From a virus: 26,330 nt of DNA. Below, in pieces: positions 113 through 3,998 of this stretch. The notes below the pieces were generated by a model. That model made no database searches and was not told the origin of the DNA. It saw only the letters and a program-made list of their open reading frames with translations. The stretch lies in IMG/VR virus record IMGVR_UViG_3300032053_014531. One strand, 5' to 3'. Position 1 is the first letter of the stretch; each line of letters begins with the position of its first letter. A program made the position numbers and the translations under genes.

Positions 113-760
113 TCACTCTCCTCTCTCACCCATGGTGAGCAGCTGTTTGGTCAGATACGTTTTGATCTCGTCGTACGAAACTGGAGCGTAGAGCGGGTAG
201 AAGTCATCCCCTCCATCCACCTTCTCCGCCCCCTTCTCCAACCTGTTTCTCCACGACCAGGCATCCACACCTACGTCCACTCTGGCCATCCTAGGCGAAT
301 ACAGCCCCGGATCGTTGCTGTGCGAATGCCCATGGAACATCCAGGCTCCATGGTGTTTTCGATTCCACGAGGAAATGGGATAGTGAAATAGCGAGACGTG
401 CTGCTTGCCGCCGGGCGCGTCTTCGTCTCTGATGTCGAGCTCCTTGTAATCGTACCTCTCAACAAAGCACCCAGCAAGATCGCTCCCATCCCGGATCCTG
501 TCGTGGTTGCCGTGCAGCAGCACTTTGCGCCCGTTCAACCGGCTTACGAGCTCGACCAGGCGCACTTGTTGCCGCGAGGATCTTCCCCAACCGACATCGC
601 CAATCAAGTAGACCAAGTCACCCTGTGAAACCGTCTTGTTCCAGTCCTCAACAACCCCCTCGTCATGAACGCCTATCGACGGAAACCACTCACCTCTGTC
701 GGTGTATTTCAGGATGTTCGCATGCCCAAGATGTAAATCCGCTGTGAAGAAATCAGTCAT
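113..760 (-). CDS. calcineurin-like metallophosphoesterase (Ser/Thr phosphatase / ApaH-like)
   Basis: Motifs DLHLGH, LIGDVGWGR, LLHGNHD in canonical order of metallophosphatase motifs I-III; 215 aa. Confidence 0.85.
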   Translation of the reverse strand: MTDFFTADLHLGHANILKYTDRGEWFPSIGVHDEGVVEDWNKTVSQGDLVYLIGDVGWGRSSRQQVRLVELVSRLNGRKVLLHGNHDRIRDGSDLAGCFVERYDYKELDIRDEDAPGGKQHVSLFHYPISSWNRKHHGAWMFHGHSHSNDPGLYSPRMARVDVGVDAWSWRNRLEKGAEKVDGGDDFYPLYAPVSYDEIKTYLTKQLLTMGERGE

Positions 761-1214
761 CTTGCCTCCCGTCTATCGCCCGACTCAGGGCCTTCTCCGC
801 ATCGCAGGTGTACGACGTCATCCCCCAGCCCAGGCTGTTCTTCTTTTCGATCATCTTCTGCTCGATCGCGCTCTTGGGGTCCCGCCATGTCTTCTCCTCA
901 AGCCTGTTATAGAGTTTTCGAAACTGTGCCACGCATGAATCGTTTGCGCAAACGAAGAACGGCATAGCTGCCCGCGTCTTATTCCTCTCACGGATAATCT
1001 TGCAAGCCTCCCTTCGTCCCCCCGTAAGCTCGATGCGGTCGTACCCCTCACCGTGAAAGAGCAACCAAGCCCGCCCACAGATTTCGCAGCACCAGCTCTG
1101 CACGCTACTGTACATCACGGGCGTGCACACAGCGGAGTACGCGCATTCTACACACGGGCGCTTCTGCAGCCCGTGCGACGCCCGCCGCTTCTTGTCCCTG
1201 CTTGCCCTGCTCAT
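753..1214 (-). CDS. zinc-ribbon paralog array member 1 (C-x2-C-x2-SAVC ... C-x2-CG)
   Basis: RPCVECAYSAVCTPV...CCEICGRAW; SD GGGAG before ATG; 8-nt overlap with downstream phosphatase start. Confidence 0.7.
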   Translation of the reverse strand: MSRASRDKKRRASHGLQKRPCVECAYSAVCTPVMYSSVQSWCCEICGRAWLLFHGEGYDRIELTGGRREACKIIRERNKTRAAMPFFVCANDSCVAQFRKLYNRLEEKTWRDPKSAIEQKMIEKKNSLGWGMTSYTCDAEKALSRAIDGRQDD

Positions 1215-1235
1215 GGCGTTCTCCCGTTATCGTTC
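1207..1235 (-). repeat. ~30-nt conserved junction element (stop/SD/start), second copy at 1544-1573
   Basis: ctgctcatggcgttctcccgttatcgttc vs ctgctcatggcgttcttcccgttaccgttc read directly; covers the SD and ATG of array members 1 and 2. Confidence 0.6.
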
Positions 1236-1551
1236 ATAAGAACCCTCCTCTCTGGCGGTGCAAAGTAACGCAATGAGCAGCACCACAAGTAAAGCCACCA
1301 CTGCCTTGCTGGTACGTTGCTATCGAACAACATCGAACGAGAGCGTTAGCGCGCTTAGCAGACCAAGGAATCCGACAACGATGCACAGCAGTTCGTAGAC
1401 TCGGTGCCTCCTGTGCCAGTTGGTAGAATGAGATCTCAACAGCTCCGCAGTAGAGACACCTGATGAGCTCGATATGCACCACACGCTCGAGGGTCAAACA
1501 GACCGCAGATAGGCCGCAGCTACTGCACCTGCGTTCGCTCTTGCTGCTCAT
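1234..1551 (-). CDS. zinc-ribbon paralog array member 2
   Basis: RRCSSCGLSAVCLTLERVVHIELIRCLYCG; ATGA overlap with member 3. Confidence 0.7.
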   Translation of the reverse strand: MSSKSERRCSSCGLSAVCLTLERVVHIELIRCLYCGAVEISFYQLAQEAPSLRTAVHRCRIPWSAKRANALVRCCSIATYQQGSGGFTCGAAHCVTLHRQRGGFL

Positions 1552-1928
1552 GGCGTTCTTCCCGTTACCGTTCCCAGCATACGGAACTTCGCCATGTCCA
1601 TGCGTCGCTGCCTACACTTCTCTTTGGCGCAGACAAACGCCCTGTTCTTCTCATACACCCCTACAATATCGCAGTACTCCGCCAGCGCCTCGGCCTCTGC
1701 GTGTGTCCAATCCGTCATCACTCTCAAGATGACTGCGTTTCTGCGTATCCAACCATTCTTGCTGCACGTCTGCCTCACCTCCTCTCCCGGTCTCCCAAAC
1801 CTGATCTGCCTCCCACCGCAGTTCGTGCAGCGCATGATGTCAATGCGCGTTACGCCAGTCAGCGCTAGGCAGATCGCGCCGATACGGCAGGTGGAACAAC
1901 CTTCTTTATCGCTCCGTTGTTTGTTCAC
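1548..1928 (-). CDS. zinc-ribbon paralog array member 3 (GTG start)
   Basis: EGCSTCRIGAICLALTGVTRIDIMRCTNCGG; AAAGGAG SD before GTG; GTGA overlap with member 4. Confidence 0.65.
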   Translation of the reverse strand: MNKQRSDKEGCSTCRIGAICLALTGVTRIDIMRCTNCGGRQIRFGRPGEEVRQTCSKNGWIRRNAVILRVMTDWTHAEAEALAEYCDIVGVYEKNRAFVCAKEKCRQRRMDMAKFRMLGTVTGRTP

Positions 1929-2410
1929 GTCGATACTCCTTTCTTACCACCCCACAGCTTCTTCAACCTCCTCCTCCCATATCTTTTCTTCCCTTTGTTC
2001 AGCGCCCGTGCCGGTCCCTCTGCCAGCTTGAACAGCGGCTCAGGCGCTTTCTCTCGCGCCCTCTCGAGCTCACGCTGTCGGTGTCGCGCCACCTGGCAAG
2101 CAGGGCTCGCACAGGTATACGGCGTCGTCCTGTCCCACATCCCCTGCTGCGCTTCGCGTTCTCTCTCAAGCGCGCGCAAATACTCCTGCACCCGTGCACA
2201 GCTTTCCTCCCGCCCATCGCTCAGCTCCAGATGTGGGGTGTGCTGAGAGACGCCAGGCACCGCCACCCACGCCTTCCCACAGAACTGGCACTTGATGGCA
2301 TAGAGCCTCTCGAGTGGCAGGCACATGGCCGAGATCTCACACGCCCGGCAGGGCGCGCGCATTGTTTTTCGTCGCTCACGCTTTCGCTTCTGCCTTGTTG
2401 TGCTGCTCAT
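1925..2410 (-). CDS. zinc-ribbon paralog array member 4 (start refined to internal ATG, MSSTTRQKRK...)
   Basis: RAPCRACEISAMCLPLERLYAIKCQFCGKAW; internal ATG at 2410 gives an ATGA overlap with member 5, matching the pattern of the rest of the array; the 202-aa ORF extension was not used. Confidence 0.6.
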   Translation of the reverse strand: MSSTTRQKRKRERRKTMRAPCRACEISAMCLPLERLYAIKCQFCGKAWVAVPGVSQHTPHLELSDGREESCARVQEYLRALEREREAQQGMWDRTTPYTCASPACQVARHRQRELERAREKAPEPLFKLAEGPARALNKGKKRYGRRRLKKLWGGKKGVST

Positions 2411-2676: not shown

Positions 2677-2948
2677 CTCCTTCTTTCATCCATCCTTCTT
2701 TTCTTGTCTTCCATTTCTTTTCTGTACCTCTCAAGCAAAGTCTTCGCACCTGGACAACTACTTGGTCCTCTGAATAGTCGTAGTGACCCCTCGCGCAGCG
2801 TGACCCACAGCTCGGGTCGAAGATCGTCGATCGCTCTTGCCTCAACCCATATCTCGAACCCGGCGACGCCGATACAGACCGCCGAGTAAGGGCAGGTCAC
2901 GCAGTCTCGCCGCGATCTCACTATTTTTGCTATCCTTACTTCTTCCAT
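2673..2948 (-). CDS. zinc-ribbon paralog array member 6 (start refined to MEEVRIAK...)
   Basis: RRDCVTCPYSAVCIGVAGFEIW; GAGGGAGGA SD before the internal ATG. Confidence 0.55.
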   Translation of the reverse strand: MEEVRIAKIVRSRRDCVTCPYSAVCIGVAGFEIWVEARAIDDLRPELWVTLREGSLRLFRGPSSCPGAKTLLERYRKEMEDKKRRMDERRR

Positions 2949-3283
2949 TCCTCCCTCGCTTTCCTCTGCCAGCGGTCCACCCGGTCTGACATGCGTTCCT
3001 CCACACACTCATCACTGTCGCAAGCGACCGTGTCACTGAAAAACGAAATTTCCCCATCGTTGCGCTCACAGCGATCCCGCAGCGCAATGATCTCGCCAGG
3101 TGTCCAATGTGAAAACCATCTGGAGTGTGCCCAGTACAGCCCCGGTGGCGCCGCTGTCGTTCCCCTCAGCATGGCAACGCGAATACGGTGACAATACGGG
3201 CACTCCAGTATTTGAATCTTGCCTGGCCACGTCAAGCAAATCGCAGATAGCCGGCAGCGCCCGCAGTGCTTGCTCTTTGTCAT
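2936..3283 (-). CDS. zinc-ribbon paralog array member 7
   Basis: KHCGRCRLSAICLTWPGKIQILECPYCH; the ATG follows the TGA of member 8 directly (TGATG). Confidence 0.65.
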   Translation of the reverse strand: MTKSKHCGRCRLSAICLTWPGKIQILECPYCHRIRVAMLRGTTAAPPGLYWAHSRWFSHWTPGEIIALRDRCERNDGEISFFSDTVACDSDECVEERMSDRVDRWQRKAREEWKK

Positions 3284-3687
3284 CACAGTCCTCGCCTCTT
3301 CTTCGACTCATAGTAGTTGGTGATGTTTTCGTTGATCGCCCGTTCCCGCGCATGCGCCATGCACGGCCCGGCGTCGCAAGTCATACAAGGATCCGCCTGT
3401 ATCTGCTTCATCCTTGGGCACTGCTCTCTAGGCCACCGGCGTAGCTTGCCGTCGTCATGCACTTCATGCACCACAGTTCCCGCCGTAAGCATGCGCGACG
3501 CAATCGGGTTATCCGGTGAAGCTGCCCAGGTCTCACGGACATGAATGGCCGCCTCCCCACAGTAATGACACGCCCTGATGACGATCTTGTGCACCTCATG
3601 CGTATACTCGGTCCAGCTCTCGGTCAAACAAAACGCACTGAACGGACACGTCGAACAGGCAGCGTGGACATTAGTCATTTCTTCCAT
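3283..3687 (-). CDS. zinc-ribbon paralog array member 8 (start refined to MEEMTNVH...)
   Basis: AACSTCPFSAFCLTESW...IRACHYCGE; GGAGGGGGG before the internal ATG. Confidence 0.6.
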   Translation of the reverse strand: MEEMTNVHAACSTCPFSAFCLTESWTEYTHEVHKIVIRACHYCGEAAIHVRETWAASPDNPIASRMLTAGTVVHEVHDDGKLRRWPREQCPRMKQIQADPCMTCDAGPCMAHARERAINENITNYYESKKRRGL

Positions 3688-3980
3688 CCCCCCTCCTCTT
3701 CCTCTCTTCCCGCCGCGCATCGCCAGCGATGTCTGGCGGCGCGACACTCTTTCTCGTTGCAGGTATACTGTGGGTTATTCTTGGTCTTCAGGTATAGAGG
3801 GCAATCTGGTGGAACTCGGATCTTCCCCCGTCGCACAGGATCATTCTCAAGCCACCAACATAAATCCACACAAACCTTGCCACAGTAGTGACAGCCGGTG
3901 ATCATGAAATACGTTGCTACGTCCGTGTACACACAGAGCGTGCTGAGCGAACACTGCGCACATGGCGATAAAGTAGACAT
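3675..3980 (-). CDS. zinc-ribbon paralog array member 9 (start refined to MSTLSPCAQC...)
   Basis: SPCAQCSLSTLCVYTD...ITGCHYCGK; GAAGAGGAGG SD before ATG; first gene after the upstream terminator. Confidence 0.6.
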   Translation of the reverse strand: MSTLSPCAQCSLSTLCVYTDVATYFMITGCHYCGKVCVDLCWWLENDPVRRGKIRVPPDCPLYLKTKNNPQYTCNEKECRAARHRWRCAAGREEEEGGWKK

Positions 3981-3998
3981 ACGCGCCTCCTCTTCCAC

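Follow-up and report, generated by a model that had tools for sequence, protein, structure and literature searches.

A nine-gene array of cysteine-rich paralogs with two putative metal sites, restricted to one phage lineage

The WhiB-like (Wbl) proteins are [4Fe-4S] transcription factors that are also encoded by actinophages, and the solved WhiB1 structures show them to be all-helical. Treble-clef and zinc-ribbon folds are found in the Zn_ribbon Pfam families, in DksA/TraR and in the Com protein of phage Mu. Takeover and anti-defence genes are clustered in the SPO1 takeover module, among the T4 early genes and at anti-CRISPR loci. In African swine fever virus (ASFV), the multigene families MGF110 and MGF360 have a role in host range and immune evasion that has experimental support. 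Here, we describe a family of small cysteine-rich proteins encoded by nine back-to-back genes in the IMG/VR virus record IMGVR_UViG_3300032053_014531, and compare it with these systems. The window, by which we mean the whole stretch of DNA that was analyzed, is 26,330 nt long with a GC content of ~57%, and nearly every gene lies on its minus strand.

The nine minus-strand open reading frames (ORFs) lie between positions 753 and 3998. For each gene, we took the start codon that has a Shine-Dalgarno sequence and that agrees with public gene calls on sister contigs, where the gene lengths are identical. A ribosome binding site (RBS) is present at every start, and the ORF calls together with these RBS-supported starts (753-3980; g9 to g1 in transcript order, Table 1) bear out the nine consecutive genes that a first-pass annotation had reported from the sequence. 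The junctions from g9 to g5 are a 13-nt overlap, a 1-nt overlap (TGATG), a 13-nt overlap and a 2-nt gap, and those from g5 to the phosphoesterase gene downstream are ATGA, GTGA, ATGA, a 19-nt gap and an 8-nt overlap. The ATGA, GTGA and TGATG junctions noted earlier are thus present within a set of overlaps of 1, 4, 8 and 13 nt and gaps of 2 and 19 nt. These overlapping junctions and the terminator at 4072-4042 support the proposal that the array is translationally coupled, is probably polycistronic and follows a strong terminator. The nine copies are probably carried on one translationally coupled message, which continues into the phosphoesterase gene and at least four further genes.

The proteins share a cysteine core that is far more frequent than expected by chance. 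The spacing C-x2-C-x5-C is present in all nine array genes and in a tenth, isolated copy (10/10), while the stricter core proposed at first, C-x2-C-x2-S-A-[VIMF]-C-L, holds its SA only in part: C..C..SA.C is found in 8/10 copies, but g3 has GA and g9 has ST at these positions, and the core motif of the family overall is C-x2-C-x2-[SG][AT]-x-C. The strict motif occurs eight times in the six-frame translation, compared to 0.005 expected from shuffles, and when the residues of the ten proteins are shuffled, a mean of 0.35 proteins (maximum 3) retain C-x2-C-x5-C. Pairwise BLASTP between copies reaches E = 3e-13 (g2-g3) and 9e-13 (g1-g4) in alignments over 78-110 residues. A profile hidden Markov model (HMM) of the family recovers the window's own ORFs at E = 1e-11 to 7e-30, which are self-matches by construction, with g8 as the top scorer (118 bits). 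The shuffles, the BLASTP matches and the alignment all show that the claimed paralogy and conserved cysteine spacing are not due to chance. The G[RK][AI]W motif described in g1, g4 and g5 is also seen there.

Alignments of the family, which we built with 10, 13 and 14 sequences, extend the homology well beyond the N-proximal core. Everything C-terminal of that core had been described as different between copies, but the alignments show a further invariant cysteine and a conserved C-terminal motif, so that the whole core of ~90 residues is homologous. Numbering the conserved cysteines C1 to C8, we found that C1, C2, C3 and C6 are invariant in 14/14 aligned sequences, with C6 located 39-70 residues downstream of C3 and often followed by proline. 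The second pair, C4-x2-C5, is present in g1-g4 and g7-g9 and absent from g5 and g6, as first noted, but it follows C3 by 10-19 residues rather than 10-16, and in g7 it is followed by H rather than G. The C-terminal motif [FY][TV]-C7-x4-C8-x3-[HR]R-x-R is conserved in eight two-pair members, and the arginine that follows C8 is close to invariant in the family as a whole.

The distribution of the cysteines among the copies provides information on how they are paired. Both g5 and g6 lack C7 and C8 as well as C4-x2-C5. Altogether, C4/C5 and C7/C8 co-occur in 10 paralogs and are jointly absent in two (Fisher P = 0.022 for the first ten copies), and the four-cysteine state of g5 is the same in a 62%-identical orthologue (P0011). 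Because C4/C5 and C7/C8 are lost as a unit, we infer from the sequences that each core has two four-cysteine metal sites: site A, formed by C1, C2, C3 and C6, and site B, formed by C4, C5, C7 and C8.

The family is not confined to the array. The tenth copy announced at 24557-24820 (g10) carries C-x2-C-x5-C and matches the family HMM at E = 8e-15. An eleventh is cut by the window end and is complete on a sister contig (L018 4186-4512; 108 aa, core CSRCPLSAVCL), where a twelfth (core CKKCQLSALCL) lies just upstream in a reading frame that overlaps it by ~90 nt. Copies 10-12 have C7-x2-C8 in place of C7-x4-C8 and make up a second, looser cluster. The scores of copies 11 and 12 with the family HMM are low (31 and 25 bits, respectively), and both are missing from the matches of the exhaustive search described below. 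The family therefore comprises at least 12 members of ~80-160 aa, most of them basic.

We modeled g2 with AlphaFold2 using the 13-sequence family alignment, and obtained a predicted local distance difference test score (pLDDT) of 82.2 and a predicted template modeling score (pTM) of 0.71. The predicted elements are, in order, helix 4-11, helix 15-20, strands 24-32, 38-45 and 53-61, helix 65-74, strand 78-81 and helix 92-100. The first CxxC lies in a helical N-terminal segment, with Cys9 and Cys12 on either side of the point where the first helix ends, and Cys18 is inside the second helix. The second CxxC (Cys32 and Cys35) is at the beta1-beta2 hairpin turn, Cys75 is directly past the third helix, and the Arg-rich helix that ends the model is immediately preceded by Cys89 and has Cys94 in its first turn. 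This layout is compatible with a site B that resembles a treble clef and with a site A apart from it.

The genes had first been labeled as zinc ribbons, and this label is not established. No zinc-ribbon Pfam model reaches its threshold; the best matches, in one member each, are Zn_ribbon_TOP3B (E = 0.028; 14.5 bits compared to a cut-off of 27) and Zn_ribbon_9 (E = 0.2). In the model, the first CxxC is helical and only the second forms a beta-hairpin knuckle. Bearing on a one-site zinc ribbon, the co-loss joins C4/C5 to C7/C8 and not to C1/C2. When the g2 model was compared to known structures with Foldseek, there was no significant match in the PDB (best E = 0.14) or in BFVD (best E = 0.022). 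RNase H/ASKHA (its beta-beta-beta-alpha part), the enolase N-domain and PH-like folds recurred as weak matches; we set these aside as generic, and the family has no conserved acidic catalytic residues.

Searches for relatives outside this phage lineage returned none, in agreement with the earlier statement that the family is unrecognized. Every copy had only chance-level matches in Pfam, PHROGs, PADLOC and NCBIfam (for PADLOC, which holds defence and not anti-defence proteins, E >= 0.0086), and the family profile matched nothing among PDB sequences at E <= 10. When 1.84 billion cluster representatives were searched exhaustively with the HMM, 11 proteins were found, corresponding to ten paralog groups and a second type of g9, all of them from metagenomes and from the same phage lineage. 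A word-indexed search of 5.8 billion proteins added nothing past this phage's copies and two diverged orthologues. At the nucleotide level, blastn of window positions 1-8000 (the array, the phosphoesterase gene, the MYG1-like gene and most of the vault-protein-like gene) had no match in 50,697 phage records. A scan of IMG/VR with g8 also had no match, metagenome scans for the diverged g5-like lineage returned one contig that was already known, and literature searches found no description of such a family. Judged by these sequence searches, the family is restricted to one phage lineage and is an orphan at HMMER sensitivity. Since copies 11 and 12, at 25-31 bits, fell outside the hit list, equally distant relatives elsewhere would have been missed.

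We next consider how the copies have evolved. The paralogs are only 20-32% identical, and we found no DNA-level repeats within the array; therefore, the duplications are old. At the g3-g2 and g2-g1 junctions (window 1532-1640 and 1195-1300, minus strand), ~30/32 nt are shared though the proteins are only ~30% identical. A 1-nt indel and a 34-nt deletion account for the g2 stop codon 19 nt ahead of g1, and the 3' end of g2 retains a relic frame (ORF 1211-1333) that ends in ...NDNGRTP* with an ATGA overlap to the g1 start. The sister contigs come from at least a dozen metagenome samples, and wherever their alignments cover array genes, the identity is 93-100%. Among strains, the per-gene ratio of nonsynonymous to synonymous polymorphism (pN/pS), where both classes of change occur, is 0.09-0.56, which resembles the 0.24-0.46 of the neighboring MYG1-like gene and exceeds the 0.08 of the vault-protein-like gene. 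The array genes are under purifying selection.

Gene content is otherwise uniform on the sister contigs that span the array, with exceptions in three strains. One strain (L009) has no g6; window positions 2667-2953 are missing (L009 1464-1470) and the junction lies in the GGAGG Shine-Dalgarno sequences of g6 and g5, a position that suggests that array genes are gained or lost unit by unit. In L011 and L012, another allele with ~65% nucleotide identity takes the place of a segment that reaches from the terminator past g9 and a dozen codons into g8 (L011 1638-2050; window ~3650-4075), and the flanks of this segment are 94-97% identical. The replacement protein, g9' (P0009), is 46% identical to g9 and retains all eight family cysteines; dN/dS between the two is ~0.12, and their synonymous sites are saturated. 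The array is mosaic at its 5' end. In another strain (L007), synonymous divergence is 35% in the MYG1-like gene, while g9 differs at one synonymous site. The array had been called rapidly evolving, but the paralogs are old and their strain pN/pS of ~0.1-0.5 is like that of neighboring genes. The data suggests that these genes are old and constrained, and that now and then a cassette is exchanged or a copy is lost, rather than that their sequences are evolving rapidly at present.

On this basis, we tentatively propose that the family consists of metal-stabilized intracellular binding proteins that are specific to the lineage. In the proposed mechanism, the ~90-residue core is probably organized around two metal sites of four cysteines each. 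Site A, retained in every copy, would combine C1-x2-C2-x5-C3 with the distant C6, and site B would combine the C4-x2-C5 beta-hairpin knuckle with C7-x2/4-C8 at the start of the C-terminal Arg-rich helix. The proteins would act inside the infected cell as metal-stabilized binding modules. Their conserved basic C-terminal helix would contact a partner of a shared kind, most plausibly nucleic acid, and differences in specificity between the paralogs would come from the tails and from the beta2-beta3 loop, which is variable. The isoelectric point (pI) is 8.4-10.3 in 9/10 copies.

Several points weigh against this proposal. Metal binding, the binding partner and the timing of expression are all inferred, as is the assignment of cysteines to sites A and B, and the AlphaFold model of g5 is poor (pLDDT 57). 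Sequence cannot separate zinc from an iron-sulfur (Fe-S) cluster. The neighboring proteins are also rather basic (median pI 8.6), and the charge of the family is therefore weak evidence. The suggested function comes from composition and anatomy, with no homologue of known function, and accessory genes for host interaction would account for the loss of g6 and the exchange of the g9 allele as well as regulators would.

An alternative to nucleic acid-binding modules, serious but doubtful, is that the proteins are host-takeover or anti-defence inhibitors, in which every paralog would bind and block its own host target (a defence system, RNA polymerase or a nuclease, for instance). In favor of this, the array consists of small genes of no known function, ORFans surround it, and its family is confined to one phage lineage. 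Gene content varies, as g6 is missing from L009, and the 46%-identical g9 allele of L011 and L012, set in 94-97% identical flanks, indicates cassette-like exchange. However, strain pN/pS of ~0.1-0.5 is not above that of the flanking genes, and array composition is the same on all other spanning contigs. The proteins are basic rather than acidic, and the conservation of the Arg-rich helix in all paralogs suggests one shared partner, not ten. There was also no match in PADLOC, the library of which consists of defence proteins.

In a wider scenario, a previously unseen two-metal-site fold could have been expanded by one clade into at least 12 combinatorial intracellular regulators or inhibitors, with divergent g9/g9' cassettes exchanged among genomes that are otherwise nearly identical and with site A maybe a Wbl-convergent Fe-S cluster. 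We consider this scenario unlikely as a whole.

More improbable still is that site A holds an iron-sulfur cluster and that the proteins are Wbl-like, redox-sensitive factors that bind a host sigma factor or RNA polymerase, by convergence. The C-x2-C-x5-C-L spacing of the family equals that of the WhiB motif CNRCPVTTECL (we checked the WhiB1 comparison sequence against PDB 5oay), and hhalign of the family profile to WhiB1 places the motifs in register. Moreover, the motif segment is helical in the model, four cysteines are invariant in the family, and the proteins are small with basic C-termini. That hhalign match, however, has a probability of 3% over 18 columns, and Pfam Whib (PF02467) has no match at E <= 10 in 13 members. 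The fourth cysteine lies downstream instead of ~28 residues upstream, the G[VI]WGG turn is missing, and the model contains a beta-sheet where Wbl proteins are all-helical.

We regard as very improbable that the genes encode precursors of ribosomally synthesized and post-translationally modified peptides, with a conserved recognition part and diversified cysteine-rich cores as in sactipeptide or lanthipeptide arrays. The cysteine-rich genes are in tandem, their conserved motif is N-proximal, and g3 has a match below threshold to the Subtilosin_A model (E = 0.022). Against this, among the ORFs of the 26-kb window and of its flanks on contigs L001, L002 and L018 that were compared to Pfam and PHROGs, none matched a radical-SAM, LanM, YcaO or peptidase family; the proteins, at 87-161 aa, have a confidently predicted globular fold, with conservation over the whole core including the C-terminus; and there is no evident signal or leader cleavage motif. 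Finally, chance ORFs in GC-rich sequence or pseudogenized duplicates, which would fit the relic frame in g2 and the four cysteines lost in g5 and g6, are effectively refuted by a motif far above chance, an RBS and coupled start in every copy, pN/pS below 1, conservation of the g5 state in a 62%-identical orthologue, and independent assembly of the same genes from many samples.

Table 1. Family members and associated features, with positions in the window unless a contig is named
Feature	Position	Strand	Length	Description
MYG1-like gene terminator	4042-4072	-		Intrinsic terminator of the gene upstream of the array; 14-bp stem with 8 GC pairs, 3-nt loop, T-rich tail
Array leader	3981-4041	-		T-rich; TTTTAGTAA motif at 4005-4013; RBS GGAAGAGGAGG
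g9	3675-3980	-	101 aa	Both cysteine sites
g8	3283-3687	-	134 aa	Both cysteine sites; 13-nt overlap with g9
g7	2936-3283	-	115 aa	Both cysteine sites; start shares one base with g8 stop (TGATG)
g6	2673-2948	-	91 aa	Retains C1, C2, C3 and C6 only
g5	2407-2670	-	87 aa	Retains C1, C2, C3 and C6 only
g4	1925-2410	-	161 aa	Both sites; very basic N- and C-terminal tails, pI 10.3; ATGA overlap with g5 stop
g3	1548-1928	-	126 aa	Both sites; GTGA overlap with g4 stop
g2	1234-1551	-	105 aa	Both sites; ATGA overlap with g3 stop; protein used for the AlphaFold model
g1	753-1214	-	153 aa	Both sites; long C-terminal extension; start 19 nt past g2 stop
Calcineurin-like phosphoesterase	113-760	-		phrog_547, E = 3.6e-45; Pfam Metallophos weak; overlaps g1 3' end by 8 nt
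g10	24557-24820	-	87 aa	Isolated member; C7-x2-C8; family HMM E = 8e-15; 87-aa public gene call on L019
Copy 11	26076-26330	-		Last 84 codons of a gene cut by the window end (translation of open frame)
Copy 12	L018 3822-4277		151 aa	Just upstream of copy 11; core CKKCQLSALCL

The array had been described as sealed between terminators. The strong terminator on its 5' side is present, but there is none 3' of the phosphoesterase gene, and the operon runs on: on a sister contig (L002), the next gene starts 2 nt past the phosphoesterase stop codon and is followed by three more before an 800-nt gap. In L011, the 5' terminator has a different stem sequence and still forms a hairpin. The core of the T-rich leader is conserved in L011 within the otherwise ~65%-identical patch, and the leader may act as a promoter. 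We sought a canonical sigma-70 promoter within it and found none. The nonamer TTTTAGTWW occurs on the coding strand after three successive terminators (4005-4013, 5018-5026 and 5599-5607, minus strand), with three occurrences on the minus strand (four on both strands) compared to an expectation of 0.14. The nonamer may belong to the terminators themselves, or it may be a signal for transcription initiation by the phage (a promoter) or for processing that neighboring operons have in common. We did not rely on reading TTGCTT-17-TTTAGT as a promoter, since the same TTTTAGT comes after other terminators.

The metallophosphatase reported immediately downstream of the array is a phosphoesterase by its PHROGs match, and its identity to phosphoesterases from large phages of Pseudomonas and Xanthomonas is ~34%. 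Most genes around the array are ORFans; according to Pfam and PHROGs, the recognizable ones encode the phosphoesterase, a MYG1/UPF0160-like hydrolase, an HD-domain protein, an HNH endonuclease and a major vault protein (MVP)-like protein. Three genes of metal-dependent phosphohydrolase type are located near the array, within ~10 kb: the calcineurin-like gene, the MYG1/UPF0160-like gene (4095-4991) and the HD-domain gene (L002 9021-9641). Together, they hint at a neighborhood of nucleotide or nucleic-acid processing.

The vault-like protein (877 aa; 5657-8290, minus strand) contains a Vault_3 repeat and a major-vault-protein shoulder domain (PF11978, E = 5.5e-26). Reports of MVPs in viruses are limited to a 2023 preprint (10.1101/2023.11.10.566534). 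Relatives of this protein are 40-45% identical in uncultured phage genomes of 462 kb and 735 kb (LR756500 and LR756501), and another on a 101-kb IMG/VR contig (L013) is 42% identical. From this genomic context, the source element is most likely a large, uncultivated phage. We looked for the array near these relatives and found none within 10 kb (L013) or ~20 kb (LR756500, LR756501).

Elsewhere in the window, there is a tRNA-Ile gene (10413-10489, minus strand) with the unusual anticodon AAT, on which ARAGORN and Rfam (46 bits) agree. Other cysteine-rich frames do not belong to the family: a 136-aa ORF with several CxxC pairs and an acidic tail (25467-25877, minus strand), a 162-aa ORF that has about six CxxC pairs and matches NMD3 and Zn_ribbon_8 weakly (L018 3392-3880), and short frames at 10825-11594 (minus strand). 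Apart from the family, the only paralogs that we detected within the window are the two genes at 13285-13548 and 22707-22988 (minus strand), which align over 84 aa with 38% identity (E = 2e-13).

The original observation is real and somewhat larger than first noted, while its structural label and its evolutionary reading need correction. On present evidence, the family adds to the phage ORFan families that have no explanation. Should the fold and the arrangement of two sites prove true, it is a new small metal-binding domain, so far confined to a single clade of large phages from the environment. That a dozen old paralogs are maintained by purifying selection implies that each has a distinct job in infection, and the array is a compact place to seek new phage ways of binding host nucleic acids or proteins. 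The family also illustrates a limit of database searches: two true members from the same genome, at 25-31 bits, were invisible in a search of billions of proteins.

Compared to the Wbl proteins, the family is alike in being small, in its local C-x2-C-x5-C-L within a helical segment, in its four conserved cysteines and in its basic C-terminus. It differs in that no cysteine precedes C-x2-C-x5-C, so that the fourth is downstream rather than ~20-30 residues upstream. In place of the G[VI]WGG turn, it has only G[RK][AI]W, which is present in three copies and located in a strand. The family is also predicted to have three long strands (E24-32, E38-45 and E53-61) and a short fourth (E78-81), and it has a putative second four-cysteine site. 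By its sequence, we do not count it as a member of the Wbl family. Site B is closer to a treble clef or zinc ribbon, with its CxxC beta-hairpin knuckle and two cysteines at the start of a helix, followed by basic residues. Yet no Pfam model of this kind reaches threshold, no fold in the PDB or BFVD matches significantly, and site A is not a ribbon knuckle pair.

At the level of gene organization, the ASFV MGF110 and MGF360 genes are likewise tandem, diverged and partly cysteine-rich paralogs with a copy number that varies between strains. They belong to a eukaryotic virus, their sequences are unrelated, and it is for them that a role in host range and immune evasion has experimental support. 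The array resembles takeover and anti-defence clusters in its many small, tightly packed genes and in some presence/absence and allele variation between strains. We looked for an adjacent helix-turn-helix regulator of the Aca type and found none. Those clusters mostly hold unrelated genes, whereas every member here is a paralog of one fold. The family is new and lineage-restricted, while its general kind, small cysteine-rich phage proteins encoded in a multigene array, is familiar.

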